A stretch of DNA of 64,000 nt from a virus: IMG/VR virus record IMGVR_UViG_3300029723_000002, positions 1-64,000 of that record. One strand, given 5' to 3'. Below are positions 40,145 through 56,691 of this stretch, one piece after another. A program made the translations under genes and the position numbers. Within the stretch, counting starts at the first letter, position 1. The number at the start of each line of letters is the position of its first letter. The notes beneath the pieces are model-generated. The model saw only the letters and a list, made by a program, of their open reading frames with translations. It did not search any database and was not told the origin of the DNA.

Positions 40145-40149
40145 TAAAC

Positions 40150-40221: not shown

Positions 40222-40250
40222 CTAATATTTTATGTTAATAAGGTTTTTAC

Positions 40251-40341
40251 GGAAGAGTACTCAAGTGCTTTAAGAGGGCAGTTTTGAAAACTGCTAGGTT
40301 GTGTAACAAGCAACGCGTGAGTTGGAATCTCACCTCTTCCA
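40251..40341 (+). tRNA. tRNA-Ser(UGA), type II
   Basis: Acceptor ggaagag/ctcttcc. Three-bp D-stem. Anticodon stem gcagt/actgc with loop tttgaaa. Long variable arm. T-arm gtgag-ttggaat-ctcac. Confidence 0.55.
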
Positions 40342-40357
40342 CATTTATATTAAAGTT

Positions 40358-40633
40358 ATGTATAGAGAAATTGGAGACGTATTTACAATGGTAGATTCTG
40401 ATGCTTCAAAAGTATTAGAGTTACAGGTGGTAAAAGAGAGGTATGGTTTAGTATGTGAAGAGTGTTATTTTTACAAAGAATACGAACATTGTGTTCCATA
40501 CACTAATTCACAATGCAGAGCACAAGTAGGCCACTGTTCTTTTCATTATAGAGAAGATCATATGGATGTTATATTTAAATTACTTAAAGAACATAAAAAT
40601 TTTAATAAGGTAATTCCTATTAATATAACATAA
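40358..40633 (+). CDS. Cys/His-rich small protein
   Basis: Track ORF 40322..40633, trimmed to the ATG at 40358 so that it does not overlap the tRNA-Ser. Confidence 0.35.
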   Translation: MYREIGDVFTMVDSDASKVLELQVVKERYGLVCEECYFYKEYEHCVPYTNSQCRAQVGHCSFHYREDHMDVIFKLLKEHKNFNKVIPINIT

Positions 40634-40671
40634 TCAATTATATTTAAAGTGTAAATATTGCACTTTAGAAT

Positions 40672-40744
40672 GGAGTTTAAGCTAATCTAGTGAAAGCACT
40701 AGACTGAAAATCTAGGGAGCCAGGAGCGTAACCTGGAAACTCCA
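40672..40744 (+). tRNA. tRNA-Phe(GAA)
   Basis: Acceptor ggagttt/aaactcc. Anticodon stem ctaga/tctag with loop ctgaaaa. T-arm ccagg-agcgtaa-cctgg. Confidence 0.55.
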
Positions 40745-40948
40745 CAGAATCGTCTCTAGAACAATTATCAATAAAATTACTGTAAATTATTATAACTGCT
40801 AAAAGGAGATATGCTTTCTAAATTATTTATCAGTAGTCTTCGTCTAGAAGCTTAGGATACAGATAAAAGATCAGTTAAAATAAGGTTTTAATTTATTTGC
40901 TGAGTCTCTGAGAGAAAGGTGCAAATCCTTTAGATTACTATTTTTTCT

Positions 40949-41019
40949 GCATGTATGACCGAGTGGTGAGGTGCGGCTCTGCAAAAGCCATTACGTAGGT
41001 TCGAGTCCTGCTACATGCT
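40949..41019 (+). tRNA. tRNA-Cys(GCA)
   Basis: Acceptor gcatgta/tacatgc. Anticodon loop ctgcaaa. T-arm gtagg-ttcgagt-cctgc. Confidence 0.5.
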
Positions 41020-41030
41020 CCTAATCTTAT

Positions 41031-41102
41031 GCATTGTTGGTGTTAGTGATAGCATATGTGACTTCCAATCACAAGGGGAGAGTTTGAATCTCTTACAATG
41101 CT
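41031..41102 (+). tRNA. tRNA-Gly(UCC)
   Basis: Acceptor gcattgt/acaatgc. Anticodon stem tgtga/tcaca with loop cttccaa. T-arm gagag-tttgaat-ctctt. Confidence 0.5.
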
Positions 41103-41117
41103 CAAATAATAAGTAAT

Positions 41118-41480
41118 ATGAAAAGTTGAAATTTTATAACACATAAACAAAAATTACACTGAGGATATAGGATCTTACTAATGGAGAATCAAGGTAAAGC
41201 ATTTGGCAGCATTTACTGATATTTTGATGAGCCTAGAGATCTTTATATTGATATGATTAGTGTTTCAGAAGAAAGTCAACAAAAAGGATTGGGCACATTC
41301 TTATTGAAGAAACTAGAACACATTTGTGTTAATGATTTGTCTGCTGAAAAAATTTCTTTATGAACATTCAAGAATAGTTGAACAAAAAAATGGTATAATC
41401 GTTGTGGATATAAGGATGCAGAACCTAATGAGTCAGAACCAGAAACAATTTGAATGGAAAAAAGAATAAATTCATTTTAA
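41118..41480 (+). CDS. GNAT family N-acetyltransferase (120 aa), 6 in-frame TGA
   Basis: YIDMISVSEESQQKGLGTFLLKKLEHICVNDLSAEKISL W TFKNS W TKK W YNRCGYKD matches the GNAT motif A/B pattern. The frame was checked from ATG 41118 to TAA 41478-41480. The gene is invisible in the ORF track. Confidence 0.55.
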
Positions 41481-41502
41481 TCTTATATATTTACTTAACT
41501 TA

Positions 41503-41844
41503 ATGAAACTTAAATTTGTTAAACTATCTAATAGATGGTTTGTAGATATACCTTATATAGGCTCTATCGAAGATCTTGAAATGGTATCTGGTAGTGATAA
41601 ATTTTTAAATAATCTATGTTTAAGAACCGAGTCTACTACTACAGCATTAGAGTTAGATGTTTCAACAACTGAAGAGTCTCAATACTGTTTTAAATTTGTA
41701 ATTAGTGACATTGACTCTAGTGGAGCTACTTATAAATGTGACTCTCTTGAAAATATTGATTCTATATGGCTTTGTAATGTAACAAAACTAATCTTCTCCG
41801 AGTTTCCAAGAGCTATTTATATTACATCAATAAAAACAATATAA
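41503..41844 (+). CDS. hypothetical protein
   Basis: Track ORF. Confidence 0.4.
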   Translation: MKLKFVKLSNRWFVDIPYIGSIEDLEMVSGSDKFLNNLCLRTESTTTALELDVSTTEESQYCFKFVISDIDSSGATYKCDSLENIDSIWLCNVTKLIFSEFPRAIYITSIKTI

Positions 41845-41847
41845 ATT

Positions 41848-42177
41848 ATGATTACCTTTACAGAATTTTGTAGTGAGTTACTAGCTAAACATGGATATTT
41901 AGATTTTGAATATGATATTGTTATTTCGTTTACTCAAACCTTCTCTAATACTACATGCGGTTTAGGTGGAATAGGAGGGCAGGCATTTACTAATGCTCAA
42001 ATATTCGCGTTTATTACTTGTAATACTGTAATTATAATAGGACCTGCGTGGAGCTATTGTATAGAAGACTACACAGAAATGTTATCAGTCGATATCTATA
42101 ATCATCATATTGCTGATATGTGCAACATAGCAAGAATAAACCAATATGGCAACATTAAGAAAATTAAAAGGATTTAG
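41848..42177 (+). CDS. hypothetical protein
   Basis: Track ORF. Confidence 0.4.
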   Translation: MITFTEFCSELLAKHGYLDFEYDIVISFTQTFSNTTCGLGGIGGQAFTNAQIFAFITCNTVIIIGPAWSYCIEDYTEMLSVDIYNHHIADMCNIARINQYGNIKKIKRI

Positions 42178-42220
42178 CTCAAATTAAAAAATAATACATC
42201 AGTAAAAACAGTATAATAAG

Positions 42221-42748
42221 ATGATCAATCTATCTATTTTAGAAACAGGATGGTATCAAACTAGCAACGATGAAATTAAATACATTTACGTTAACTCAGA
42301 AAATTGTGATGATGAATCATCTGATATTGAAATTGACTGTATGTTAACGGCTGCTGGAAATATTGGAATCCTTAATAATACTCTATCAGACACATATCAT
42401 TTTAAAATTCCATCAAGTAAATTAGGTACTATAAGTTATTTAGGAGATTGTATTTTGCCAAATGTAATTACAACACAAATGGCTGAAAACTACTCAGATC
42501 CAACTATTATCTGTAGAACAGCATTATTGTCATTGATAATGAGATTTACTAAACGAAAGGATAATTCTGTTAGAATACAAAAAGAAACAAAACTTAGTGA
42601 TATTTTTGCAGGTATTTCTGTTTCTGGTATAGCTATGTTATTGTTCACATATTTTGGAATACAAACGTATGAATTTGACAGGTTTAAACCTGAGGATGCA
42701 TCCATTCTAGATTTGTGTAACTACTTACTAGAGAAATTAAACCTATAA
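42221..42748 (+). CDS. hypothetical protein with C-terminal TM segment
   Basis: Track ORF. Confidence 0.4.
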   Translation: MINLSILETGWYQTSNDEIKYIYVNSENCDDESSDIEIDCMLTAAGNIGILNNTLSDTYHFKIPSSKLGTISYLGDCILPNVITTQMAENYSDPTIICRTALLSLIMRFTKRKDNSVRIQKETKLSDIFAGISVSGIAMLLFTYFGIQTYEFDRFKPEDASILDLCNYLLEKLNL

Positions 42749-42758
42749 TTAGACTAAA

Positions 42759-42842
42759 GCCCAAGTGGAGGAATTGCTAGACTCTCCAGACTTAGGATCT
42801 GGTATCCGAAAGGATGTGCAGGTTGGAATCCTGTCTTGGGTA
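42759..42842 (+). tRNA. tRNA-Leu(UAG), type II
   Basis: Acceptor gcccaag/cttgggt. D-arm gag-gaattgctaga-ctc. Anticodon stem ccaga/tctgg with loop cttagga. Variable arm tatccgaaaggatg. T-arm gcagg-ttggaat-cctgt. Confidence 0.6.
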
Positions 42843-42860
42843 CTAAATTTAACTGAAATT

Positions 42861-43736
42861 ATGATAAAAATTTACGATCCTAAAACTAATACACTTGATT
42901 GGAAGTTGTTAGACCAAATTCCAGAGATAGTAGCTTTAAAAAACACTCCTCAGAATCAAAAACATCATAAAGAAGGAAATGCTTTTATACATACATGTTT
43001 GGTAACACAAAATATGCTTGATTGTATTGAGCTAGGGCATCCTTTTATTGAAAAACAACACATGTTTGAAGATGATGATTTTAAGGAGATGTTAGTATTA
43101 TCTGCTTTACTTCATGATATTGGCAAACCCACTGTAACTAGTCTTGGAGAAGACGGCTTATATCATTGTAGAAATCATGCTGAAGAAGGAATAAGAATTG
43201 CTGATCCAATGCTTAGAGAATACTTTAAAGATGATAAAATGAAGGACTTTAAAGTTTTAGCAATATGTAATATGATTAGATACCACATGCGTCCTTTATA
43301 TATTTTTAGTAAGGCAAATCCAGCAAATAGAATATTATCATTAGCAAATGATTTGAAATATGTTTTAATGGATGCTCTCTTGTTGTTAAAGTATTGTGAT
43401 TGTAAAGGTTCTATAACTGATGAAGATACCAGGTGGTACGAAATGTTACAAAAAGTGAGAGAGTTATATTATAATACAGTTACCTATAAAGCTGGAGAAG
43501 AAGTTACGATTGAAAAAATTAGTGACAATACTACCTGTGAATATGAATCTGGAAATCATCCGAATGGTATTAATGTAGGATATCGTCGATCAGGTAAATT
43601 ACAATATCCTGTAACGGTTGGAACTAGGTGTACTATTGGGTTTCCATTCTCTAGCTCTCCTGTAACAAAAATTATTGATAAATGTACTTTCGAAACAAAA
43701 AACTCAGTATATAAAATAGTTAAACCAGAAAAGTAA
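42861..43736 (+). CDS. HD-domain phosphohydrolase
   Basis: QNQKHHKEGNAFIHTC...SALLHDIGKP carries the H...HD...D motifs. Track ORF 42765..43736 was trimmed to the ATG at 42861 after the tRNA. Confidence 0.5.
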   Translation: MIKIYDPKTNTLDWKLLDQIPEIVALKNTPQNQKHHKEGNAFIHTCLVTQNMLDCIELGHPFIEKQHMFEDDDFKEMLVLSALLHDIGKPTVTSLGEDGLYHCRNHAEEGIRIADPMLREYFKDDKMKDFKVLAICNMIRYHMRPLYIFSKANPANRILSLANDLKYVLMDALLLLKYCDCKGSITDEDTRWYEMLQKVRELYYNTVTYKAGEEVTIEKISDNTTCEYESGNHPNGINVGYRRSGKLQYPVTVGTRCTIGFPFSSSPVTKIIDKCTFETKNSVYKIVKPEK

Positions 43737-44551
43737 TGAATTTTATTTGTGTAGTAAAAGATCCAGCTATTATTCTTTGAACTTTAATTCAGAAAGGTTT
43801 TAATTGTGTTAATCCAGAATTTGCATCAGAAGTAACAGCTCTGGGAGCTGAAGGTAAATTATCTGATAAATACCCTTATCTTTTTATTGCAAAAATTCAT
43901 AAAGATTATGCAATTTTTAAGGATAAACACACAGCTGAAAGATGGCTAGCTTCTAAAGGTATTGATTCCTATCAAAGGTATTGGGCAGTAGATGATGTTT
44001 TAAAGGCTTTAGGCGTTAACAAAACGGAAGCAGAACAGAGACAAGAAGCTATTAATATTATTAATGGTAAAACAAAAAATATGGATAAAAAAGAATTTAG
44101 CTCAATTGCTAATTTGATGTCGTCGTTACTTGGCGGTGATTTTGAAAAAATGTTAAAAGAGATTAAGGAAGAACTGGAAAAGGAAGATAAAAAAAATAAT
44201 TCTGAAGAGGAATCTTTAGAAGAAAAATCTGGTACCTTTGAAGACGCTATTATTCCTGGTTATATTGTAAAATTTGCTATTGATGATCTTGATTATGGAG
44301 TCATTCTGGCAAATAGGATGATTGTATGTTTTGGTAATGATGGAAGAGTTAAAGGATATCTAAAGAAGTTCACTCAAGACACTCCAAGACCAATTGCAGG
44401 GATTTATAAACCTACTGAGGAAGCATACGGTTTTAGTAAAACTGATAAAATGATTCCAGTGTGGATAGCTCCAAAGCAAGAGGTAGTTTATACTATGGAA
44501 GATATTGAAAAGAAACTTGGTTTAGAACCTGGTTCACTCAAAATCAAATAA
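43736..44551 (+). CDS. hypothetical protein (271 aa) with 1 in-frame TGA
   Basis: The ATG overlaps the upstream TAA. MNFICVVKDPAIIL W TLIQKGF... runs in frame into track ORF 44081..44551. Confidence 0.45.
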
Positions 44552-44553
44552 TA

Positions 44554-44577
44554 AAGAGGGAATTTCCCTCTTTTTTG
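44554..44577 (+). terminator. rho-independent terminator
   Basis: agaggga-att-tccctc, then tttttt. Confidence 0.55.
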
Positions 44578-44587
44578 CTTTAATAAT

Positions 44588-44746
44588 ATGAGTAAATATA
44601 TTAGGGATTATCAAGTAGATAATTTTTCTGACGAGGATCTTGAACAAATAAAGCCAAAAAAGAATAAAATTAAAAAATTCAAAGAACCAAAAAATTCTAA
44701 GGACTCTAAGAAAAAACCTTTAAGGAAAATAAAAGATGAAATTTAG
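44588..44746 (+). CDS. small basic protein (52 aa)
   Basis: MSKYIRDYQVDNFSDEDLEQIKPKKNKIKKFKEPKNSKDSKKKPLRKIKDEI*. Confidence 0.3.
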   Translation: MSKYIRDYQVDNFSDEDLEQIKPKKNKIKKFKEPKNSKDSKKKPLRKIKDEI

Positions 44747-45563
44747 TATTGAAGATGTTTGGTTGTATCCAACTGAGATTGCATCAGAATCAGTAGATTA
44801 TAATATATATAATAAAGACGGTAAGTTACCTGTGTTTACTTCCATTGAGGAACCACTAAAACTTGAGGAGTATATTGAGTTAGGTAAACTTGGTATTAAC
44901 ACGATTATCCCACAAAGTATTAGTTTGTGGGGACGGTTATCAATGATTCATCAATCATTTATAGATTTATCCTATCACGAATTAAATAATTTGTTATCAA
45001 GCGACAATTTTACCTCTGATTTTGATAACACAAAAACATACTATATTTATATAGAATATACTCCTTATAATGGTAAACAGTTTTTTCATACTTGTAAATA
45101 TATTAAACGACAATTTGGAGGAAATGTGTTATTAATGGTATCTAATATTGGCTCGCCTGAATTATATTTAGAATGTTGTAAAACAGGCATTGATTATGTT
45201 ATTCTTGTAGATTCTTCTCGATATGTAGATCTTAAATTCTCATATCCATCTGGATCATTAATTGCTGATTGTAAAAGCAAGCAATGGGAAATTCAAGAAA
45301 CTATTAAATCAAGTCAGAATGCAGGAATTTTTTGTCCTTATACAGCAGCTTCTATTATTCATATCGAACACACATTAAACCAGATTCCAAGTTTTAGAGG
45401 TTTAGTTTTAGGAGCTGATTATGTTATGACGAAATTTAATTCCTCAAAACTTGACTATAATACGCATGTTAAAGCTATAGAAACCAAATTATTTAATATA
45501 ATGCAGTATGGAGGAATTAGAACTTTATCCGATTTTGAAAAAATTAAATATATTATTAAATAA
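44736..45563 (+). CDS. hypothetical protein
   Basis: Track ORF. Confidence 0.45.
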   Translation: MKFSIEDVWLYPTEIASESVDYNIYNKDGKLPVFTSIEEPLKLEEYIELGKLGINTIIPQSISLWGRLSMIHQSFIDLSYHELNNLLSSDNFTSDFDNTKTYYIYIEYTPYNGKQFFHTCKYIKRQFGGNVLLMVSNIGSPELYLECCKTGIDYVILVDSSRYVDLKFSYPSGSLIADCKSKQWEIQETIKSSQNAGIFCPYTAASIIHIEHTLNQIPSFRGLVLGADYVMTKFNSSKLDYNTHVKAIETKLFNIMQYGGIRTLSDFEKIKYIIK

Positions 45564-46741
45564 TGGAAGATAGAATTATATATTGTAAACTAACTGAAAA
45601 AAGTTCTAGAAAGGTTTGGGTTATAGAACCTAAACAGTTTTATCCTGATAAAACCGAAATATATCCCCTATCTGTTTCCTTAGCGTCCACTGTGATTGAC
45701 CGAATAGAACATCCAATAGGATGTGTTATTGGCCTTTATAGTAGTAAATTAACTCTAGCAAGTACTAAAAAGTATTATTCATATTCTGGAGAAAAATGTG
45801 CGGAAGTCTATGACGATCCAGTATCAGGACCTGGATATCAAAGATATTTAAGAAATCGAGACAAAACTCCAGAAGAAATTGCAGAAGAGGAAGCTAAAAT
45901 AAGTAAAACGTTACTATCTCATCTACTTAGAGACACTCAGACTAAACCTCTAACAATTGAACAACATGGATTCTATATTGAAGACGATAAGTATTATCTT
46001 CTAGTTCGGAATATTAAAAAAGTAGTTAATACTTTGTTATTAGGACCAACTGGTAGTGGTAAAACCGAGGTTATAGCTTTAGTTGCTAAGCAATTAGGTT
46101 TAGAATGTGAATATTATGACATGGGTGCAATGGCTGATCCTATTGCTGATTTGTTAGGTGTTCATAGGTTAGAGAATGGTAATTCTATTTTTGATTTTGC
46201 TAAGTTTTGTGATGATATACAGAAACCTAAGATAATCATTCTTGATGAGCTATCTAGAATGCCGCACACTTGTGCTAATATTATTTATCCGTTATTAGAC
46301 AACCGACGTTATCTTCCTGTGGAAATAGCAGGTTCAAAAGATGTTAGGCGTATACCTGTACATCCTAAATGTGTGTTTTTTGCTACTGCAAACATCGGTA
46401 TTGAGTATACTGGTACTTCAACTATGGACAAGGCGTTGACGAATCGTTTCTTTCCTATAGAGTTAGATTATTTGAATGCAACTAATGAAACTAGTGTTCT
46501 TGTAAAAAGATGTGGAATTGCTAAATCAGATGCTAAGATTATTTCTAATCTTGCTGAATCTATTAGAAAAATGAAAAGAAACTCTGATTTAGAAACCGCT
46601 ATTTCAACGCGAGAAACTTTAATGATTGCTGATTTAATCTATGATGGATGGGAACTTGTTAATGCAGTCAAAGCCGTATTACTGCCACTTTACGAACAAG
46701 ATGACAGAGAAAAAATTATTAAACTTATAATGAGTAAATAA
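45563..46741 (+). CDS. MoxR-like AAA+ ATPase (AAA_5-type)
   Basis: Walker A GPTGSGKTE. Walker B IIILDELSR. Sensor region FFATAN. Confidence 0.55.
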   Translation: MEDRIIYCKLTEKSSRKVWVIEPKQFYPDKTEIYPLSVSLASTVIDRIEHPIGCVIGLYSSKLTLASTKKYYSYSGEKCAEVYDDPVSGPGYQRYLRNRDKTPEEIAEEEAKISKTLLSHLLRDTQTKPLTIEQHGFYIEDDKYYLLVRNIKKVVNTLLLGPTGSGKTEVIALVAKQLGLECEYYDMGAMADPIADLLGVHRLENGNSIFDFAKFCDDIQKPKIIILDELSRMPHTCANIIYPLLDNRRYLPVEIAGSKDVRRIPVHPKCVFFATANIGIEYTGTSTMDKALTNRFFPIELDYLNATNETSVLVKRCGIAKSDAKIISNLAESIRKMKRNSDLETAISTRETLMIADLIYDGWELVNAVKAVLLPLYEQDDREKIIKLIMSK

Positions 46742-48636
46742 TGGCTGTTACTGATTGGTTTGGAAGAAATAAGAATAGGAATTATATATCAGAACATGGT
46801 AATCATAAGTTACAATGGGATTTTGGAATGGAGAATTCCTATTCTTCATTCTTTGCTCCAAACTTAGATAAACAAAAATTAATAAAAGACTCTTATAAAC
46901 ATGCTTGTGATATTAGGGACATTATGGAGGTCCCGAAATCAATTAAAGTTAGTTTATTTGCCCAACCTAGTTCTTATAGTACCTCCAAAAAAGTTGTAAT
47001 TTCAACTGATGTTTTTGATGATTCGGCGTTGAATAATAATCAAAAATTAGATATCTTTTTAGGATTAGCAGTTCATGAGTTCTCCCATATTTTATACACT
47101 GACTTAGATTCAGTAAAGAACTACAAATCAGACGATTACATTGGACAGTTAACTAATATAATTGAAGATGAGAGGATTGAAAGTAAGGCAACATATTTCT
47201 ATCCAGGATACGCTAACTTCTTAAAAGAAGTAAAGCGTTATTATTTTCAGAAATGTTTCAAGGAAGAACATTTAAATGATGTAACTGACGTTTTGCAAAC
47301 AGTATTTTACATTATTAGATATCCAGAAAATGTAAGTGAAGACATTTATAATCGTCATTTAGTTTTATTTGAAAAAATCAAAAATGTTATGTCTTCTTTG
47401 GGTAAATCATTTGTAGAGTCTAATTCAAAAGCAAAGAAAATTTGGAAATTAATTTGTGATTATTTTGAACTCCCACCAGAACCTCCAACAAATAATAAAG
47501 AATATTCTCAAGAAGGAGAACCAGATGAGGGTGATAATAATGATAACAGTGATATGAGTCAAGGAAATGAATCTTCTGACAATCGCTCTGGTAAAAGTGA
47601 GAGTAATTCAACTTCTGAAGGCTCTAATTCCAAAGGCTCTAACTCAGCAACGTCTAAACCTGCTGAAACAGGCACTGTAAAGCCAAGATCTGAAGAGGAG
47701 TTAAAAGACTTTGCAAATTCTATAGCGAGAAGAATCTCTAAGGTTACAAGCAGTTACACTACTCAACGTAGTTCTGAAATTAGAACATCATGGGATGCAG
47801 AAGAATATGCTGGAGATTTAGTAAGGGAGAGTGATGATTTAGTATTGCATCGTCAGGAAAATAATCAGGAAAACTATAATGAAGTTAAGACTCAGTTAGG
47901 AGTTTCTATTACACCACTAGTTAATGCTTTTAGCAAATTTTTTGTTGAGCAAAAATATAATCTTAGTGGGTTAAGAAGAGGTAAACTTGATACGGGAAAA
48001 CTTGCTGAAGCTTATCAAAATGTTGAGACTGTTTATACACAAACATTCGAAAGAATAACGCCAGGTTTAGATTTATGTCTGTTAATTGATGAATCAGGTT
48101 CAATGGACGGAAGCAAAATTGATACTGCTCAACAAGCTGCAATCTTATTGAATGAAGTTTGTTTAAAATTACCTAAATGTAACTTGTTTATTTATGGTCA
48201 TACTGCTGATATTGTATCATCTGGCGATACATTTATTAATGTTTATCGAGACTCTTGGAATAAGAATAAGTATTCTTTAGGATCTGTAAGAGCAATGTGT
48301 AACAATAGAGATCATGAAGCAATCGAGGAAGTTTATAAACTTGTAAGAAAACAAACTAATAACCCTCTTTTAATGTTTGTAATATCTGATGGATATCCTG
48401 CTGCACGAGGTTTACTTAATTTATCAGAATCAATAAGGTTGGTAAAAAAGACAGTTGACTGTATAGAATCAAGAGGTGACACAGTTATTTGTCAGATAGC
48501 TATTGAAAGTGATATCGATCCTCAAAAAATGTTTAATAATTATATTCATCTTACAGATTTAGATACATTTCCTAGAGATTTATCTAATTATGTACTAAAA
48601 ACTCTTATATCAAAACTTAAAAGAATTGATATATAG
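46741..48636 (+). CDS. multidomain protein: N-terminal HExxH metallopeptidase motif, acidic Ser-rich linker, C-terminal von Willebrand factor A (VWA) domain
   Basis: LAVHEFSHILY. Low-complexity EGEPDEGDNNDNSDMSQGNESSDNRSGKSESNSTSEGSNSKGSNS. MIDAS-like LLIDESGSMDGSKIDTAQQAA. Translationally coupled to the upstream MoxR-like ATPase. Confidence 0.55.
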   Translation: MAVTDWFGRNKNRNYISEHGNHKLQWDFGMENSYSSFFAPNLDKQKLIKDSYKHACDIRDIMEVPKSIKVSLFAQPSSYSTSKKVVISTDVFDDSALNNNQKLDIFLGLAVHEFSHILYTDLDSVKNYKSDDYIGQLTNIIEDERIESKATYFYPGYANFLKEVKRYYFQKCFKEEHLNDVTDVLQTVFYIIRYPENVSEDIYNRHLVLFEKIKNVMSSLGKSFVESNSKAKKIWKLICDYFELPPEPPTNNKEYSQEGEPDEGDNNDNSDMSQGNESSDNRSGKSESNSTSEGSNSKGSNSATSKPAETGTVKPRSEEELKDFANSIARRISKVTSSYTTQRSSEIRTSWDAEEYAGDLVRESDDLVLHRQENNQENYNEVKTQLGVSITPLVNAFSKFFVEQKYNLSGLRRGKLDTGKLAEAYQNVETVYTQTFERITPGLDLCLLIDESGSMDGSKIDTAQQAAILLNEVCLKLPKCNLFIYGHTADIVSSGDTFINVYRDSWNKNKYSLGSVRAMCNNRDHEAIEEVYKLVRKQTNNPLLMFVISDGYPAARGLLNLSESIRLVKKTVDCIESRGDTVICQIAIESDIDPQKMFNNYIHLTDLDTFPRDLSNYVLKTLISKLKRIDI

Positions 48637-48692
48637 ATTTTATATTTCACTGTTTTTTATTATTTTTGCAGTATAACTAAAAATAATAAAAT

Positions 48693-48763
48693 GCCTTTGT
48701 CGTTCAATGGTAGGACAGCGCTCTTCAAAAGCGTGTATGTGAGTTCGAATCTTGCCAAGGGTG
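48693..48763 (+). tRNA. opal suppressor tRNA: tRNA-Trp-like body with anticodon UCA (reads UGA as well as UGG)
   Basis: Hand-folded, 71 nt. Acceptor gcctttg/caagggt. D-arm gttc-aatggta-ggac, as in Trp tRNAs. Anticodon stem gcgct/agcgt with loop cttcaaa (U33, UCA, A37). T-arm gtgag-ttcgaat-cttgc. Discriminator G73, which is the Trp identity base. Confidence 0.7.
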
Positions 48764-48793
48764 CTAACTGATTAAAAACTAACAAGTTATAAT

Positions 48794-49003
48794 ATGTTAT
48801 TATTCTCAGAAGAAGAAGAAATTCAAGAATTAGCAGAAGAATTAAACTGTACAACGCAAGAAGCAGGTATCATTTATCTAAGGCAGGAAGGGTGTACTTA
48901 TACACAAATAAGACTAAAACTAGGTAATCCTTCCAATAAACTAATTAGACAAACACTACTAAAATATGCACCTAATCTTATAGAAAATAATGAAAAAGTT
49001 TAA
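48794..49003 (+). CDS. small HTH-like protein
   Basis: Track ORF. Confidence 0.35.
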   Translation: MLLFSEEEEIQELAEELNCTTQEAGIIYLRQEGCTYTQIRLKLGNPSNKLIRQTLLKYAPNLIENNEKV

Positions 49004-49520
49004 AATATTGTTACATGATTATGTAATTGTAATCGCTTTACTTGCTTTTAGTGTCTTATATATTAAATTTTCTACAGAATCGGTATCTGCAGAACCTTCC
49101 AATATTGAAATAGAGTCTCCAAAAGAAGACTCTATTATTATTTTAAGGGATTCGTTAACAGAATGGCAAGTATTTATCATGGCACTTATTGAAGTTGAAT
49201 GTGAAAGAAATCCTAAAGCTAAATCTCCTGGTGGTGCGGTTGGACCATTTCAAATAACACAGTCTTATATTAATGAAATTAATAGAATATATAAGACAGA
49301 CTTTATTTTGTATGAAGCTTATAATTTAGATAAGGCTTTATGTATGTTTGAGATGATGAACGATCACTATAATCCTAATCGAGATGTAGATAAAGCTATT
49401 AAACTTCATAATCCTAAGGCTGGTAACTGGTACACTAAAAAGGTAAAGCAAAGAATGCAGGCTATTGAGTTTAATGAGGAAGTTAGAGCTAAAATCATAG
49501 ATTTATATAATATTTATTAA
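48990..49520 (+). CDS. membrane-anchored lytic transglycosylase-like (SLT domain) protein
   Basis: N-terminal TM segment. ECERNPKAKSPGGAVGPFQITQSYINEI resembles the SLT catalytic E...GLMQ motif region. Confidence 0.45.
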   Translation: MKKFKILLHDYVIVIALLAFSVLYIKFSTESVSAEPSNIEIESPKEDSIIILRDSLTEWQVFIMALIEVECERNPKAKSPGGAVGPFQITQSYINEINRIYKTDFILYEAYNLDKALCMFEMMNDHYNPNRDVDKAIKLHNPKAGNWYTKKVKQRMQAIEFNEEVRAKIIDLYNIY

Positions 49521-49525
49521 GTAAA

Positions 49526-50134
49526 ATGAAAAGAATAATAATAGAAATATTAGCTGTAATTGCGGTCTTTGCTCTTTTATTGTATTTAGGAAAAACTATC
49601 AAAGATCTTAATACTAGATTAGCATATTCTGTTAATAATGAAAAAGCATATGCTGCTGAAAGGACAGATTTAAATGCAAAAAATAGAGCGTTTCAACTTA
49701 CAATAAAACAACTTGAAAGCTCCACCGACTCCTTAACAAGAAAACTGAAAGAAGTAGCTAATGAAAGTGGAATTAAAGATAAGAGAATTAAATCACTACA
49801 GTATCAGCTTGAACACTATTCTAAAACGGATACAATAAAAATTCAAGACACAATTTTTAAAGATCCTCAGTTTGTATTAGATACATGTGTCCAAGATGAA
49901 TGGAATAAATCTTGTTTACATTTAAAGTATCCAAATGAGATTGCTATGAACCATGAATATACTAATTCTAAGTATATATTAGCTGAAGGAAAAAGGGAAA
50001 CAATTAAACCTAGAAAGTGGTTTTTACCTCGCTGGTTTAGTAAAAAACACACTATTGTTGAAATTACAGTTGTTGATGAAAATCCATATGTAATTACCAA
50101 AGAGCAACGTTTTATACAAATTGTTGAAGATTAA
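49526..50134 (+). CDS. membrane-anchored coiled-coil protein (spanin-like candidate)
   Basis: N-terminal TM segment followed by a long coiled-coil. Sits next to the SLT gene. Confidence 0.35.
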   Translation: MKRIIIEILAVIAVFALLLYLGKTIKDLNTRLAYSVNNEKAYAAERTDLNAKNRAFQLTIKQLESSTDSLTRKLKEVANESGIKDKRIKSLQYQLEHYSKTDTIKIQDTIFKDPQFVLDTCVQDEWNKSCLHLKYPNEIAMNHEYTNSKYILAEGKRETIKPRKWFLPRWFSKKHTIVEITVVDENPYVITKEQRFIQIVED

Positions 50135-50136
50135 TT

Positions 50137-50349
50137 ATGAAGACTTTAAATGCTATAGCATTAAGAGACTATATTGACGATAACGGTGTTTTTATTTGTA
50201 CTCAAGGTCAAAATGTAACCATTATTAAAGATAATAAAGATTGTTTGGTTAAAACCTCTTGTGGATGGTATGAGGCAGACGTAGAGGATTTTGAAGTAAA
50301 AGAACTGAATAATGAGGTATCAGGAGTGTTTAAAAAGAGGATTTGATAA
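50137..50349 (+). CDS. hypothetical small protein
   Basis: Track ORF 50137..50346 ends at TGA, which is followed immediately by TAA. Confidence 0.4.
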
Positions 50350-50821
50350 AGAAGAAGAATTTGCAAAGTTATTAGTTAGTACCTGTGGTGGAGTTACTCA
50401 AAAGGCAAATCCTAAAGAGGATATACATGATCATATAGATTTGTGGTGAATCATTAATGGAAAGACTATTGGATTAGATATTAAGGCACTTAAAAAGCAG
50501 TCTAGAAATGATAAAGTTTATAGCAATAATATTCATTGAATAGAACTAAAAAACGTTAATGGTAAACCTGGTTGGCTTTTTGGAAAATCTGATTATATAG
50601 TTTTTGAAGGAGTTAACATGTGGATTGTTGTAAAAAGAAAAATATTATTAACCTTTCTTAAACAAAACGTTAACTTTAATACTATTCATGAATCACTTAC
50701 TAATTTAAACGCATATGAATTATATCGTCGGAGTGGCAGAAGTGATTTAATTCTTAAAATCCCAGTAGAGGACCTACTTAAATTAAATTCAAAAATTATT
50801 ATAAAAAATGAAGCGACTTAA
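50312..50821 (+). CDS. nuclease-like protein (169 aa), 3 in-frame TGA
   Basis: MRYQECLKRGFDKEEEFAKLLVSTCGGVTQKANPKEDIHDHIDL W W IINGKTIGLDIKALKK...NNIH W IELKNVNGKPGWLFGKSDYIVFEGVN runs in frame into track ORF 50618..50821. The D...D-x-K-like spacing suggests a PD-(D/E)XK fold (inference only). Confidence 0.4.
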
Positions 50822-51308
50822 TATAGCTCTTGTTGCACATGATGCTAGAAAAAAGGAATTAGTTGATTGGGTTAAATTCAATATACATTCACTATATAAT
50901 CATCACATTATTGCTACTGGTACCACTAGTAAATTACTTGGCAATATTATGGTTAAACAAGTTACAGAGACAGATTGGAGAGAGAAAGAATATTTTGTAA
51001 ATAAATATCTCGATATAACTCCTGTTCTTTCTGGTCCTCTTGGAGGTGATCAAATGATTGGTGCTATGATTGCAAAAGGACAAATTGATGTATTAATTTT
51101 CTTTTGTGATAATCTTATTACACAGGGACATCAAACTGATATTTCAGCATTAACTCGACTAGCTTCGCTGTATAATATTGCATTTGCAACAAATCGCACT
51201 ACTGCTGATATGATTCTTACCTCTTCTTTATTTGCAAATGAAAGTTACCAACCCATTAAAAATGATTTTAGTACATATTTAAACAGACCATTATATGAAA
51301 AAAGCTAG
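50808..51308 (+). CDS. mgsA: methylglyoxal synthase homolog
   Basis: NIALVAHDARKKELVDWV...IIATGTTSKLL...VLSGPLGGDQMIGAMIAKGQIDVLIFFCDNL...ALTRLASLYNIAFATNRTTADMIL aligns motif by motif with E. coli MgsA (HIALVAHD, ATGTTG, SGPMGGDQQ, IDVLIFFWDPL, ATN..TAD). Confidence 0.7.
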   Translation: MKRLNIALVAHDARKKELVDWVKFNIHSLYNHHIIATGTTSKLLGNIMVKQVTETDWREKEYFVNKYLDITPVLSGPLGGDQMIGAMIAKGQIDVLIFFCDNLITQGHQTDISALTRLASLYNIAFATNRTTADMILTSSLFANESYQPIKNDFSTYLNRPLYEKS

Positions 51309-51804
51309 ATTTTATTATCCTAAACCTGTGGAGTTTATTGATGGTGTGGTTTTCCCAGACACTGATAATATCATTATAAATCCTAAAAAAACTTATGGTA
51401 AACGTTATACTATGGTTTCTGTGTATAACGATGAAAATGATAGTATTAGATTTGGTGTAGCTACTTGTTGTCCTGAAGATAAATTTGAAAAAGCAATTGG
51501 AAGAAAAATTGCACTAGAAAAAGCTGATTCTGAGCCTTTCCTGACTATAGATAATGCAACTGAAGAAATGGAAAGAACAGGTTTAACATTCTCAGAACTA
51601 GTAATGAAATGTCTCAAACGTCACACACTTTTCTTACTTACTTCAGATGAAAAATATAATAAATACTTTAAGTCAGACACTCGTGTACCACTAAGGAATT
51701 TTAAAGAATTGACCAATCTTGAAGACGCCGAAGAAGAGATAATACAGGATCAAATTGATAAGATAATTTTTGCTATGAAAGGTGATGGTTGATTTTGTAC
51801 TTAA
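51295..51804 (+). CDS. hypothetical protein
   Basis: Track ORF, extended through a TGA at 51790-51792 to TAA at 51802-51804. Confidence 0.45.
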
Positions 51805-51955
51805 TGGAAAGATTATTCTTGAGGATCACAACTTAAATAAATTTCAAGAAGATTTTGCTCAACTACTATATAAATATCAAACTGTTTTCAAGGGAGAAAT
51901 AAGAAGTTATAGTTTTGAGGAATGCGAAATAATAGAACCAGAAGTTAGTGATTAA
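51785..51955 (+). CDS. small protein (56 aa)
   Basis: MVDFVLNGKIILEDHNLNKFQEDFAQLLYKYQTVFKGEIRSYSFEECEIIEPEVSD*. Confidence 0.3.
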   Translation: MVDFVLNGKIILEDHNLNKFQEDFAQLLYKYQTVFKGEIRSYSFEECEIIEPEVSD

Positions 51956-52388
51956 AATTTATACTGATGGGAGTTATAAACCTTCTACAAATCAAGGAGG
52001 GTATGCTTCAATCATTATTAATGATGATAAAATAGTTAAAATTTTACAACAAGGATATATAAATACTACAAACAATAGGATGGAAATTATGGGAGTTTTA
52101 AAGGCGTTAGAGTTTTTTAAGACTCCTCAAGATATTATTATCTATTCAGATTCAAGTTATGTAGTAAGTAGTATGTCTAATAATTATGTACAGAGATGAG
52201 TATCAGATAATGATACATCAAAAAAGAACATGGATTTGTGATCTAAGATCCTAAACTTATCAAATTTTCATAATGTAAAGTTTGTATGAGTTAAGGGTCA
52301 TAATGATAATAGATGAAACGAACTAGCTGATATTTATGCAAATATATCAGCTACTGTCGAAAACCCACAAATAGACTTAGAAGACTAA
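51948..52388 (+). CDS. rnhA: ribonuclease HI (146 aa), 4 in-frame TGA at conserved Trp positions
   Basis: IKIYTDGSYK...NNRMEIMGVLKALEF...IIIYSDSSYVV...VQR W VSDNDTSKKNMDL W SKILNLSNFHNVKFV W VKGHNDNR W NELADIYA matches YTDGS, TDS.Y, DLW and W.WVKGH...NE.AD of RNase HI. The start appears to be GTG at 51948. The stop is TAA at 52386-52388. Confidence 0.75.
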
Positions 52389-52393
52389 TAAAT

Positions 52394-52759
52394 ATGAATA
52401 GTAAACAATTAAGATTGAAAAAAGTTGGAAACCATTGGCTTCCCTGTATTTCCCATGAAATTGGCGATAATATAGCACTTAACAAAAAAATTGATAGATA
52501 CTTAGATTGTTTAGATTTTAGCAAAATGGAAGAAGTTGTTATTGAGTTTGAAGAGCTAGATATTATATGGGATGGTCTTAATATTGTTTACTTTAGTGAG
52601 GAAGATATTACTAGATATCTAACTACTGATGATGACTTTAATATTAGGTTTACTATCAACAATCATAATTTTGAAATTTCATCATCTCTTTATTGGCTTC
52701 TAGAAGATCAATTTAACTTCAACTTTCATAAAGTAGGTTATAAGATTCATATTCTTTAG
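52394..52759 (+). CDS. hypothetical protein
   Basis: Track ORF. Confidence 0.45.
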   Translation: MNSKQLRLKKVGNHWLPCISHEIGDNIALNKKIDRYLDCLDFSKMEEVVIEFEELDIIWDGLNIVYFSEEDITRYLTTDDDFNIRFTINNHNFEISSSLYWLLEDQFNFNFHKVGYKIHIL

Positions 52760-52798
52760 ATAATAGGAAACTATTTATTATTTTTAATTTTATTTACT

Positions 52799-54463
52799 AT
52801 GAAAATGAAAACTGAAGCACCAAGTATTGAAAAATTAGATCTTAAAAGACGTAAATGTACTTTAAGTGACGATATGATTCGATTGATGCTAAGACAGTTA
52901 ACTCATGAAATGTACAATCATAACTTGTATAGAAGTTTTGCAAACTTTTATGGAGTTAGAGGTTTTCAAGTACTAGAACAATATTATATTGATCGTGCTG
53001 AGGAAGAAAAACTGCATCATGATTGGGTATATGGATATTTAAATGAATGTGATGCTGAATTTATTTATCCCGAAATTCCTGCCATTTCAGAAAAGTTTGA
53101 AGATATGATTACTCCTTTCCAATTAACAGTTGATAAGGAAATTCAAACAACTATGGAAATTAATGAAATGGTTGATTTAGCTTGTGACACAAGCGATTGG
53201 GCAACTTTCAATTGGCTTAATGGACATGACAAAGAAAAAGGCATGTTAGTTAATGAGCAGGTAGATTTCTGCCTGGCTATATAGTAATATATAGTAAGAA
53301 CAAACCAAAAACGGTGGAGGCTGCGATGCTAATACCGTGCTAATTTAGAACTTAAAAAATTCTAAACAGTGTAACGCGTAGATTTTGAACCTAATTATTA
53401 ATAGTTTTAAATTTGTTTGTGAGTTTAGTAAAGAATTATTATCTTTGTACTGAACCTTTAAAAGAATTAATATGGCTAAAATTAAAGAAACAAACAAATT
53501 TTATGAAAATAAGATTTTTCAATCAAAATCTTATGGAGATTTTAAAGTATTAAAATATAATAATACTTTTAATGTAGAAATAGAGTTTTTAACTACTGGA
53601 TATAAAACTTCAGTACAGTTGAGTAATGTTAAATCTGGTAGTGTCAGAGACCCTTATTATCCAATAGTTTATGGTGTTGGGTATATGGGAGAAGGTCCTT
53701 ATAAGTCTCGACCAGTACAAAATGGCCCGCAGAGCAGATGTTATAAAATTTGAAAAGAAATGTTGGGAAGATGTTATTGTAATAGCACTTCAAGTTTTAT
53801 AAATTATGGAGCTTGTGGAGTTGTTGTATGTTCAGAGTGGCATAATTTTCAAAACTATGCAAAATGATATTATAAAAACTGCATAAACGAATCTTATTGT
53901 GTTGATAAAGACTTTTTAGGAAAAGGTCTTAAAATTTATAGTCCCACGACTTGTTGCTTTATTCCTGAAGAGATTAATGCACAGTTAACATTAAGACAGT
54001 CAAGGAGAGGAAAATTTCCATTAGGTGTAAGACCCTGTGGAAAAAAATATCAAGCACAATTAAACAAAAACTCTAAAAAAATTCCATTAGGTGTATTTAA
54101 CACAATTGAAGAAGCATTTAACGCATACAAAACAGCTAAAGAAACGTTTTTGAAAGAGTTAGCTGATAAATATAAAGCTACTATTTCTGAGGAAGTTTAT
54201 TATGCATTAAAAAATTTTCAAATAAATATTAATGATTAGAATAAAATAAATCCAAGAGTGGTTTGCCCCTATATTTTAGGGTGAAAATGTACGCTGAACT
54301 ATAGTGAAATGAAGCTATAGAAGTTAAGATAAAAAGCTTAACGATAACAAATTGAGAAGAAGAAAATATCAGTCGAACAGCGTTGGATATAGCAGAGTCT
54401 GAAGGCAGTTGGCTTAGAAAAGAGAAATCTATCATGAATGCATATAAGGGTGATACAGATTAA
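52799..54463 (+). CDS. ferritin-like protein, split gene: exon 1 52799..53262, group I intron, exon 2 54355..54463
   Basis: Exon 1 ends ...ATFNWLNGHDKEKGMLVNEQ-V(gt|). Exon 2 supplies (a)EEENISRTALDIAESEGSWLRKEK... The spliced product matches the bacterial ferritin C-terminal region (E. coli FtnA ...[25 protein letters not shown]...). Unspliced, the ORF would end VDFCLAI*. Confidence 0.6.
53263..54354 (+). mobile_element. group I intron carrying an HNH-AP2 homing endonuclease
   Basis: The 5' exon ends with U and the intron ends with G. It shares the motifs gtgtaacgcgtag and ccaagagt...aaaatgtacgctgaact and the 3' terminus gataacaa(a/t)ttg with the intron at 60996..62095. Confidence 0.55.
53472..54239 (+). 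CDS. intron-encoded HNH homing endonuclease with AP2-like DNA-binding domain (255 aa), 2 in-frame TGA
   Basis: ...GYMGEGPYKS...RCYKI W KEMLGRCYC...NYGACGVVVCSE W HNFQNYAK W ...RPCGKKYQAQLNKNSKKIPLGVFNTIEEAFNAYKTAKE matches the HNH_3 plus AP2 architecture of phage homing endonucleases (I-HmuI-like). Confidence 0.55.
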
Positions 54464-54478
54464 TTAAAATAGCTAATA

Positions 54479-54808
54479 ATGTCTCTAATAACTGATTTAG
54501 GATTAGATCAACAATATACTACAGATCGTCCAATACTGTATTCTATACCTATAATATTTCCTAAAGTTATTGACAAAGAATATATAAGTTATTTAGTTAG
54601 TTTAGGTGTTACTTGTATTTTAGATACATCTGATCCTAGGTGGCATGACGCACCATTAAGTTGGATTTCTTTGTATTTAACAAATGGTCAGAACATGCAT
54701 GACATTAACACTTATTTGTCAAAAGGCGATTTAATACCATTAAGTACTGATAAGAAAAGAATATGCATTAACTTTTGTGGACTAAAATTAATACAAGAAA
54801 ATGATTAG
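54479..54808 (+). CDS. hypothetical protein, first of a tandem paralog array
   Basis: LGLDQQYTTDRPILYSIPIIFPKVIDKEYISYLVSLGVTC. Confidence 0.45.
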   Translation: MSLITDLGLDQQYTTDRPILYSIPIIFPKVIDKEYISYLVSLGVTCILDTSDPRWHDAPLSWISLYLTNGQNMHDINTYLSKGDLIPLSTDKKRICINFCGLKLIQEND

Positions 54809-55136
54809 AGATTTAAATCTATTGGGTTTAGACGAACAATATACAGCTCTTGGCCCACAGATCATGAATCTTCCTGTAGTATTCCCAAAAACTACTAACA
54901 AAGAAGCAATACAATATCTTACAAGTTTAGGGTACACATGTGTATTCGATCAGATATCAAAAAATCCAGATCAACGCCTAGCTATTGGGATTTGTATATT
55001 TATAAGCGAAGGCTTCACTCTATTTGATGTTGAAAAATATTTAGAGGATAATGAACTAGTACCTTTGGATTCTAATAGGAAAAATTTATTCATAAATATA
55101 AATGGATTATATAAAATGAGGTTAAACGATGGATAA
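54801..55136 (+). CDS. paralog
   Basis: LGLDEQYTALGPQIMNLPVVFPKTTNKEAIQYLTSLGYTC. Confidence 0.45.
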   Translation: MIRDLNLLGLDEQYTALGPQIMNLPVVFPKTTNKEAIQYLTSLGYTCVFDQISKNPDQRLAIGICIFISEGFTLFDVEKYLEDNELVPLDSNRKNLFININGLYKMRLNDG

Positions 55137-55440
55137 TTTGAATTTATTAGGTTTAAAACAACAATACTATAAGAAATCTTGACCAGAACAAATTTTTATA
55201 TTTCCTCAAACTACTAACTTTGATAGCTTAAGATATCTGCTTAGTTTAGATTATGTTTGTGTAGTTTCTGGGCTTTTTGATAGTTTAATTACAGAAGGTA
55301 AATCTAGAGGTACAATTTATATTTATGATGTTGATCAATTAGATTCTTATAAAAACATGTATCTAGATCTTAAGCTAGAACCAGTTCCAGAAAAAATTAA
55401 AGAAAGAATAATACTATCCCTATCGTTAGAACAAATCTAA
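55129..55440 (+). CDS. paralog (103 aa), 1 in-frame TGA
   Basis: MDNLNLLGLKQQYYKKS W PEQIFIFPQTTNFDSLRYLLSLDYVC... Confidence 0.4.
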
Positions 55441-55459
55441 CAAGTATATATGCTAAGTT

Positions 55460-55681
55460 ATGGAAACCCTAAATATTAGAGATTACATATGCTCCTATGA
55501 TACATCTGTAGAAGCAGCAAGAAAAGTTGTAGATAAGATTATTCAATGGTGTAATAAGTACGAATGTACTGGAGGAGAAATGCTTTGTCAAAATGATGAT
55601 TGTATAATTGAAAGTCCTTATCTAGTTGCAGACATTATTGATAATATACTTAAATTTGGACATAAGTTAAATGATGATTGA
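55460..55681 (+). CDS. hypothetical small protein
   Basis: Track ORF. Confidence 0.35.
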   Translation: METLNIRDYICSYDTSVEAARKVVDKIIQWCNKYECTGGEMLCQNDDCIIESPYLVADIIDNILKFGHKLNDD

Positions 55682-55958
55682 GGAAATTAATCATATATAT
55701 GTAATTCCAAGTTATAAGAAGGAGTATTTTATTTTTCCACAAACTGTTGAATACGACACACTTAAATACTTGATCGATATGGGTTTTATTTGTATTGTTG
55801 GAGGATTTATTAACAGTAGTAAATTACAACCTATATGTCTATATAATAGATATGTTCTAGATAAATACAGGAAGTGTGATCTAGTGTCTATACCTGAAGA
55901 TATGAAAGAATTTTGTATTAAAGATGTATATGGTTTTGAACAATTATCAGATGATTAA
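55671..55958 (+). CDS. paralog-like small protein
   Basis: YFIFPQTVEYDTLKYLIDMGFIC. Confidence 0.4.
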   Translation: MMIEEINHIYVIPSYKKEYFIFPQTVEYDTLKYLIDMGFICIVGGFINSSKLQPICLYNRYVLDKYRKCDLVSIPEDMKEFCIKDVYGFEQLSDD

Positions 55959-56691
55959 CTTACCAGATACGATTAAAAAAATAGGATTCTTAGGTGACGA
56001 ACATGGTAATCTAAAACATATTAGATATATTATCAATAGTTATCATTTAACTGATACAGTTCTGTTTTTATGTGGTGATGTTGGTTTAGGATTCCAACCT
56101 AAATGAGAAAGGTCTATAATAGATTATATCAATAAAAAATTGGTTATCACAAACTGTTATGTAATTGGAGTTCGTGGTAACCATGACGATCCAAGTCAAT
56201 TTCGGGATACTGAGTTAGTTAAAGCTAATGGCAATCCTAGGAACTGGTTAAATGTTCCAGATTATACTGTTGTTAATGTATGTAATAAGAATATCTTGTG
56301 TGTTGGTGGAGCTACATCGATTGATCGTAAATATAGACTTGCAAATGGCTGGGGTTATTGGGAAAATGAATCTCCAATTTATAAACCTAAATTAGAAGAA
56401 CGTATAGATATTATTGTTACACATAGTGCTCCTTCTTTTTGTTTTCCTCAGATAAAAAGTGATATTGTTTATGAGTATGCAAAGTATGATGAAACTTTAT
56501 TAGATGATATTTCTAAGGAAAGAATGGTTTTTGATAAAATATATGAGGATTATAAGGACACAATAACTGACTGGTTTTACGGACACTATCATCAGTCTCA
56601 TTTAGAGCAAATAAATGGAATTAATTTTCGTTTACTAAATATAGAAGAATTTTGTGAATACCGCTCCACAGATAATTACAATATATTGTAA
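55924..56691 (+). CDS. calcineurin-like metallophosphatase (Ser/Thr phosphatase family), 1 in-frame TGA
   Basis: GFLGDEHGNL (GDxHG) and GVRGNHD (GNHD/E) motifs. Track ORFs 55924..56106 and 56140..56691 were joined through TGA at 56104-56106. Confidence 0.5.

Follow-up and report, generated by a model that had tools for sequence, protein, structure and literature searches.

A probable phage-encoded tryptophan-type opal-suppressor tRNA in a partly recoded crAss-like gut phage, with intron-split alleles in its relatives

Introduction

Phage-encoded UGA suppressors that accompany TGA-to-Trp recoding are already well described in crAss-like phages. UGA and UAG suppressor tRNAs, the use of TGA for Trp in part of the genome, genome sizes of 145–192 kb and dense introns have all been reported for these phages (Yutin et al., 2021, PMC7886860), and the Zeta crAss-like phage Lera carries a Sup-TCA tRNA as well as TAG stops with a nearby TAA (PMC12386605). 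A switch from the standard to an alternative code, with recoded lysis and homing-endonuclease genes, was described by Borges et al. (bioRxiv 10.1101/2021.08.26.457843), who detected a TGA suppressor in only 35% of code-4 phages with tRNAscan-SE in bacterial mode; the opal suppressors derived from E. coli trpT are the precedent in that study. Proteomic validation has been reported for code 15.

The window analyzed here is the whole stretch of 64,000 nt (positions 1 to 64,000 of the IMG/VR record IMGVR_UViG_3300029723_000002). It contains a tRNA gene with anticodon UCA, for which we estimate a probability of about 85% that it is a functional phage-encoded opal-suppressor tRNA decoding the TGA codons of the phage itself.

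The locus resembles the phages of Yutin et al. and Lera in many respects: the relatives' contigs are 160–175 kb, there are many tRNAs, TGA stands for Trp in part of the genome, DnaB and SNF2-type helicases and a PD-(D/E)XK nuclease are present, homing endonucleases and introns are frequent, and a stop codon is followed by a close TAA. The DNA similarity to deposited phages is limited to a 38-nt stretch, and whereas the recoded genes of Lera are mostly structural, the identifiable recoded genes of the window are replication and hydrolase genes. As in the Agate, Jade and Sapphire clades of Borges et al., a standard-code host is predicted, the suppressor lies in a region readable under the standard code, recoding extends to a lysis-type hydrolase and to homing-endonuclease ORFs, and TGA is rare as a stop. 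The replication genes of Agate are in the standard code, whereas both helicases of the window are recoded; unlike in Jade, neither TrpRS nor RF1, nor any other release factor, was seen among the larger window proteins that were scanned.

Outside the phages, the tRNA is like the tRNA-Trp(UCA) of Mycoplasma and Spiroplasma in its UCA anticodon, its reading of UGA as Trp and its G73. In those bacteria the whole cell uses code 4 and there is no suppressor, whereas here the virus supplies the tRNA and the cell most likely stops at UGA. The UCA mutants of E. coli trpT, which are charged by TrpRS, are likewise Trp-type tRNAs with U34 that read UGA; they are laboratory point mutants of a host gene, unlike the phage tRNA, which is at most 76% identical to the Trp(CCA) tRNAs found.

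Results

Identification of the tRNA gene

ARAGORN reported a tRNA with anticodon tca at 48693–48764 (+), and the Rfam model RF00005 matched the gene over its full length (model positions 1–71) with 53.3 bits (gathering score 29, E = 1.2e-8). The minimum-free-energy structure was a cloverleaf with the anticodon loop CUUCAAA. The two programs and the fold therefore agree with the sequence-only reading, which had described a 71-nt tRNA with a UCA anticodon loop and had proposed the gene-finder check; its assignment of G73 as the discriminator was likewise confirmed by direct reading. The fold energy was close to that of shuffled sequences (z = -0.1), and the call therefore rests on the covariance-model score and not on energy.

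By direct reading, the acceptor stem is GCCUUUG/CAAGGGU with a G1-U72 wobble, followed by U8 C9. The D-arm is GUUC-AAUGGUA-GGAC with a 4-bp D-stem, the anticodon arm is GCGCU-CUUCAAA-AGCGU, the variable region has 4 nt, and the T-arm is GUGAG-UUCGAAU-CUUGC. The ARAGORN label "SeC" was due to the anticodon only. Selenocysteine tRNAs are characterized by a length of ∼90–100 nt, a long variable arm, an extended 8/5 acceptor/T stack and a long D-stem. Given its 71 nt, 4-nt variable region and 7/5 acceptor/T arrangement, together with the 4-bp D-stem, the gene is not a selenocysteine tRNA, and this identity was ruled out.

The immediate neighbors of the tRNA are a VWA gene (46741–48636) on one side and a small ORF on the other. 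A scan for sigma-70 promoters and terminators around the tRNA gave nothing informative. The box TATTTTTG was taken as a putative promoter of the suppressor tRNA according to its sequence and position (Table 1).

Table 1. Features of the window and of the corresponding site in related contigs.
Feature	Position	Strand	Details
Opal-suppressor tRNA (probable)	48693..48763	+	Anticodon UCA 48725-48727; discriminator G73 at 48763; CCA not encoded; ARAGORN, Rfam RF00005, fold
Putative tRNA promoter box	48661..48668	+	Matches Bacteroidota -7 box TAnnTTTG; 25 nt 5' of tRNA
Left recoded block	381..10443	-	40 in-frame TGA, 9 TGG; coverage 0.89 with TGA as sense vs 0.50 standard
Middle block, mostly standard-code-compatible	10667..56691	+	∼121-126 TGG; coverage 0.78 with TGA as sense vs 0.71 standard
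Right recoded block, four genes	56986..60910	+	16 in-frame TGA, 6 TGG; coverage 0.90 with TGA as sense vs 0.34 standard
PD-(D/E)XK nuclease	2160..3101	-	2 in-frame TGA; Pfam PF12705, 4.9e-7
Glucosaminidase/endolysin-type protein, 740 aa	5978..8200	-	11 TGA, 3 TGG; Pfam PF01832, 9.8e-15; PHROG endolysin families
Recoded gene	50312..50821	+	1.5 kb downstream of tRNA; codon 76 (50537-50539) = TGA
SF2 (ResIII/DEAD/SNF2-like) helicase	57918..59144	+	6 in-frame TGA; Pfam
DnaB-like replicative helicase	59771..60910	+	3 in-frame TGA; Pfam PF03796; tblastn vs phages
Split tRNA(UCA) in relatives	L004 7953-8699; L005 same coordinates; L153; L154; L152 5704-6071		Syntenic with window 48693-48763

Distribution of in-frame TGA codons in the window

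The ORFs were called with TGA as a sense codon, and for each region the coverage was compared with that under the standard code. In the window (G+C 30.3%), two blocks were found to be recoded, with ∼56 in-frame TGA codons across them, and a 46-kb middle block was found to be mostly compatible with the standard code (Table 1). Roughly a third of the window genes hold in-frame TGA. The frequency of TGA and TGG together was 1.6–1.75% of codons in the recoded blocks, near the 1.1% of TGG in the middle block, as expected if TGA had replaced TGG. The proteins with recognizable domains, namely the hydrolase, the nuclease and the two helicases, were full-length only with TGA as sense, which upholds the earlier claim that window genes contain recoded TGA.

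The middle block carries every tRNA gene, the tmRNA and the suppressor, and the suppressor thus sits in a part of the window that is readable by the standard code. Its other products include AAA+ ATPases and VWA, radical-SAM, DnaJ-domain and HD-domain proteins, and its TGA codons are mostly at ORF ends or before a likely start. Some TGA-containing ORFs also fall within this "standard" block, which blurs the two-block division.

Sixteen tRNAs and a tmRNA were found in the window. ARAGORN gave 13 tRNA/tmRNA genes, and Rfam added three tRNAs that ARAGORN had missed. The tmRNA at 28856–29264 was confirmed by Rfam (73.4 bits), and its predicted tag is unusually long at 31 residues, the last of which are VAYAA. 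An aberrant or intron-bearing tRNA-like gene was seen at 20738–20820 (Rfam tRNA match, 49 bits), where a 9-bp hairpin, GTAACATAG-GGCC-CTATGTTAC, replaces the anticodon arm; the only ARAGORN reading of it is His(atg) with an 11-nt intron.

Two stretches of the middle block are missing from the related contig L005. The first (41110–41484) holds a 120-aa ORF (41118–41480) with six in-frame TGA and one TGG, a strongly recoded small insert within the standard-code block, directly 3' of tRNA-Gly(UCC). The second (53266–54354) holds an HNH endonuclease ORF (53472–54239; phrog_953, 9e-53) with two in-frame TGA and a G+C-richer tail after the ORF. It apparently interrupts the 3' end of a ferritin-like gene (52799–53284) and, from these features, looks like a mobile intron.

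Downstream of the suppressor, at 48990–50134, lie two TGA-free genes: one encodes an SLT-domain transglycosylase whose N terminus carries a membrane anchor, the other a membrane/coiled-coil protein. The pair looks lysis-type and is in the standard code, which is at odds with a recoding specific to lysis.

UGA is read as tryptophan

To establish what TGA encodes, the SF2 helicase was compared with its homologues in MT836666 and MT835492, two GenBank phage records with helicases ∼40% identical to it and stop-free under table 11. Four of its six TGA codons (14, 64, 157 and 366) face TGG-encoded Trp in these records; the other two do not face Trp, codon 227 being opposite a Phe that adjoins a Trp and codon 178 opposite Q or I. 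Numerous full-length homologues in the large protein database have W at all the TGA sites, and they were rejected as evidence: the DNA of a 50%-identical relative has TGA at the same codons, and the W is thus a circular result of code-4 gene calling. When the PDB was searched by sequence with the TGA codon translated as X, the alignment stopped short of the site and contained nothing on Trp. At codon 76 of the recoded gene downstream of the tRNA, the window and two relatives have TGA, and a third relative (L004, ∼97% identical) has TGG. According to the alignment with TGG-encoded Trp and this TGA/TGG swap, TGA stands for Trp, and UGA is almost certainly read by the suppressor as tryptophan in the recoded phage genes. 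The proposal that the UCA tRNA is the decoder of the recoded TGA codons gained support from both observations.

A different main role of the tRNA was also considered. It might chiefly perturb the host through read-through of UGA stops, as has been proposed for Zeta crAss-like phages that have suppressors without recoding (PMC12386605), or it might replace depleted host tRNAs, in agreement with the large tRNA set and the tmRNA of the phage. However, recoding in this phage is extensive and affects essential genes, and decoding is therefore required whatever else the tRNA does. Either role is compatible with decoding, and a tRNA that serves mainly such purposes, instead of phage decoding, is unlikely.

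Isotype of the suppressor tRNA

The D-arm had been regarded in the sequence-only reading as diagnostic of tRNA-Trp. To examine this, a pattern search was performed in 185,579 bacterial and archaeal genomes with GTTCAATGGTAGNAC followed by the anticodon loop, the anticodon being unconstrained. Among the first 120 matches listed, the counts were 114 Gly(UCC), 3 Trp(CCA), 3 Gln, 1 Asn and 1 Asp. The bacterial matches are thus overwhelmingly Gly(UCC) with few Trp, and the D-arm does not have the diagnostic value claimed for it. The same D-arm pattern recurs often in Trp(CCA) tRNAs of viruses, where at least 120 matches were obtained.

A bacterial panel of 492 tRNAs was then taken from the loci with the D-arm pattern. 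Whole-body identity of the tRNA to this panel was at most 68%, and its nearest panel neighbors were Gln and Gly tRNAs (68%). As Gln, Gly and Trp tRNAs of the panel were all alike at 65–68%, nearest-neighbor identity was set aside as a test of isotype.

The anticodon arm and the discriminator were more informative. The combination of G73, U31:A39, C32-U33 and A37-A38 was found in 14 of the 16 distinct Trp(CCA) tRNAs of the panel and was the majority form of no other isotype there; Gly tRNAs had U73 and C31:G39, and Gln tRNAs had G73, A:U and AC. The window tRNA bears exactly the Trp signature (G73, U31:A39, C32 U33, A37 A38), together with C35 and A36. TrpRS recognizes C35, A36 and G73. The 1:72 pair of the tRNA is G-U, in contrast to A-U in E. 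coli tRNA-Trp, and this counts against Trp identity. Taken together, a Trp-type tRNA is supported by the discriminator, the anticodon arm and the function.

The sequence-only reading had also derived the tRNA from a tRNA-Trp(CCA) by a change of C34 to U. With the anticodon masked, the Trp(CCA) tRNAs most similar to both suppressor alleles (see below), among the matches listed, were viral and only 70–76% identical, and such a descent was not borne out.

A non-Trp reading of UGA, with Gly (the code-25 meaning), Gln, Arg or selenocysteine as the residue inserted, has several points in its favor: the SeC label of ARAGORN, the identity of the D-arm with that of bacterial Gly(UCC), the Gln and Gly tRNAs as the nearest panel members at 68%, the Gly-like character (U73, C31:G39) of other viral UCA tRNAs with the same D-loop, and the inability of tRNAscan-SE to separate Trp from Arg for a Zeta crAss-like phage (PMC12386605). 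These are opposed by the TGA codons that face invariant TGG-encoded Trp in standard-code homologues, by the TGA/TGG swap, and by G73 and U31:A39, which differ from the U73 and C31:G39 of Gly. Selenocysteine is excluded by the 71 nt and the short variable arm. GlnRS depends on U35, which this tRNA lacks. A non-Trp residue is accordingly very improbable, and Trp is retained as the residue inserted.

Other viral UCA tRNAs were observed during the searches. In three viral contigs (L022 10513–10585, L026 12170–12242 and L029 9440–9513), a tRNA(UCA) has the same D-loop, with U73 or A73 and C31:G39; these look Gly-like from their sequences and may come from phages in which TGA means Gly (code 25). 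Two further viral contigs (L002 3772–3867 and L003 1687–1782) carry a 96-nt tRNA(UCA) with an anticodon arm identical to that of the window tRNA, A1-U72, G73, an encoded CCA and a long variable arm. In L003, a tRNA-Trp(CCA) lies within one 11-kb stretch with this 96-nt tRNA(UCA).

Assignment of the phage and its host

The window is very probably part of a ∼160-kb crAss-like (Zeta-like) gut phage that is partly written with TGA as Trp. Because TerL, MCP and portal are outside the window, the likeness to the Zeta group was judged from the replication block and the size of the relatives (against 145–192 kb, PMC7886860): DnaB and SNF2-type helicases and a PD-(D/E)XK nuclease are present, and contigs of relatives measure 160,654 and 164,455 bp. 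Homologues of the SF2 helicase were found on contigs of 145–175 kb, and one helicase homologue lies within a MAG labeled Bacteroidales. By tblastn against phages, the DnaB-like helicase is nearest to those of crAss-like phages of Bacteroides and of Flavobacterium phages. When 24 kb of the window was compared with deposited phages by megablast, the sole match was 38 nt long, and there is thus no close described relative among them. This stretch (54318–54355, at the end of the HNH insert) is identical to unannotated DNA in the crAss-like phages cr7_1 and cr131_1, where the copy lies between the terminase and portal genes.

For the Bacteroidota -7 box TAnnTTTG, only the orientation and the spacing to starts are informative, as the total in the window is not above chance (115 vs 98 ± 10). 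Upstream of features, 20 boxes were in the sense and 6 in the antisense orientation, and 11 boxes lie 20–29 nt from a start codon or a tRNA 5' end. Shine-Dalgarno-like 4-mers were not enriched before start codons (7% vs 13% in random windows). The absence of a Shine-Dalgarno signal is typical of Bacteroidota, which use the standard code.

Additional evidence came from the ends of the ORFs. Seven + strand ORFs of the middle block end in TGA and are followed by TAA or TAG 1–10 codons on. The median distance to this back-up stop was 3 codons behind the TGA-ended ORFs vs 10 behind those ended by TAA or TAG (one-sided Mann-Whitney p = 0.003; p = 0.019 when one clearly internal TGA was included). 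This suggests that the TGA codons at these ends are true stops, backed up against read-through.

A code-4 (Mollicutes-like) host, in which the gene would be an ordinary supplementary tRNA-Trp(UCA) and no suppressor, had been left open in the earlier reading, and the window G+C of 30% is in its favor. In code-4 bacteria, tRNA-Trp normally has the anticodon UCA. Against such a host, the 46-kb block is written with TGG (count in Table 1), and its few TGA codons are mostly ORF ends with a back-up TAA or TAG. Furthermore, the replication genes are crAss-like, the boxes follow the Bacteroidota-type -7 pattern and the Shine-Dalgarno signal is absent. Phages matched in code to their host have in-frame TGA in ∼90% of genes, compared with about a third here (bioRxiv 10.1101/2021.08.26.457843). 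Given the back-up stops behind TGA-ended ORFs and the host clues, a code-4 host is therefore quite unlikely. The host is probably a member of the Bacteroidota with the standard code, as judged from these genomic features, and the original proposal that it reads TGA as stop is most likely correct in view of the replication genes, the boxes, the lack of a Shine-Dalgarno signal and the back-up stops.

The suppressor locus in related phages

An identical tRNA was found at the same site in the 160,654-bp IMG/VR contig and in one human-gut contig from ENA. Altogether, eight related contigs carry a tRNA(UCA) at this site; its body occurs in two types, and the anticodon loop and G73 do not vary. Contigs that are 96–97% identical on both flanks hold the tRNA(UCA) with the different body; the intergenic sequence upstream of it is common with the window up to the first tRNA base. 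The spliced sequence of this allele is ACTCAGGTCGGTCAATGGTAGGCTCACGGTCTTCAAAACCGTCAATAGGGGTTCGAGTCCTCTACTGAGTG, in which G73 and U31:A39 are present.

Between the alleles of the window and of the relatives, 8 of the 21 cloverleaf pairs were compensatory, and 96.8% of cells were paired. Since the pairs changed in a compensatory manner while UCA and G73 were retained, the gene is under selection as a tRNA, and this pattern indicates that both alleles are kept in working order as UCA tRNAs. A decaying or chance tRNA-like sequence, with UGA read by wobble of the host tRNA-Trp(CCA) or by an undetected tRNA, would agree with a fold energy no better than that of shuffles and with the finding of a detectable suppressor in only 35% of TGA-recoded phages (bioRxiv 10.1101/2021.08.26.457843). 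The Rfam score well over the threshold, and the eight contigs with two bodies, eight compensatory pairs and no change in the anticodon loop or G73, speak so strongly against it that it can be given hardly any weight next to a working suppressor tRNA.

In the allele of the relatives, a 675-nt intron separates U34 from C35 (Table 1). An ORF in this intron belongs to the PF11645 PD-(D/E)XK endonuclease family (1.1e-13), and its codon 4 is TGA; in one 164-kb contig, a 294-nt version of the intron without the ORF was found. The split gene was missed by ARAGORN with default settings, and in Rfam neither the ORF-bearing nor the ORF-less split tRNA gave a group I intron match. U is the last base of the 5' exon and G that of the intron, and two hairpins show compensatory changes when the 675-nt and 294-nt introns are compared. 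A group I intron is probable on the basis of the U before the 5' splice site, the 3' G, the endonuclease family and the compensatory changes between the variants.

Discussion

The events that would follow from the presence of this tRNA can be outlined from the gene content. The host RNA polymerase would transcribe the tRNA from its own host-type promoter; the transcript would then be processed, receive CCA and be charged with Trp by the host TrpRS via C35, A36 and G73. The charged tRNA would compete with release factor 2 at UGA, and genes with in-frame TGA (the two helicases, the nuclease and the peptidoglycan hydrolase) would be translated only once the tRNA had accumulated. Where several TGA codons occur in one gene (11 in the hydrolase and six in the SF2 helicase, for example), full-length product would appear only when the tRNA was abundant. 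Expression would thereby switch from the standard-code block to the recoded ones, as in the published model (PMC7886860; bioRxiv 10.1101/2021.08.26.457843).

Such timing by suppressor availability is plausible, and from the arrangement of the genes we would give it slightly less than even odds. Recoding was found in the replication genes (both helicases) and the nuclease as well, and the adjoining putative lytic transglycosylase is free of TGA. The recoded replication genes and the TGA-free SLT protein depart from a gating model centered on lysis; if gating is real, it separates the standard-code block from the replication genes as well as from the hydrolase gene, and not from lysis alone. The presence of replication genes on the recoded side is relevant to the published proposal that late and lytic functions are timed by recoding.

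The intron-split suppressor alleles of the relatives are the element for which no description was found in the literature, within a search of incomplete coverage. It is conceivable, although rather doubtful, that the suppressor locus is a site of conflict with a mobile intron. If this were true, the supply of suppressor in phages with the split allele would depend on splicing, and the endonuclease would be made only once the tRNA that its intron interrupts works. The intron-less allele of the window, with its different anticodon stem, may then be a cleavage-resistant replacement.

For annotation, the two recoded blocks need to be read with TGA as Trp, as the helicases, the nuclease and the hydrolase otherwise appear fragmented. 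The split allele could hide suppressors from routine annotation and ties expression of the endonuclease to the interrupted tRNA. With default settings, tRNA finders overlook the split gene, and introns of this kind could therefore explain part of the ∼60–65% of recoded phages that are reported to be without a suppressor. The tRNA described here would be a further case in which a virus brings the decoder of its own code dialect into a cell whose code is most likely the standard one.
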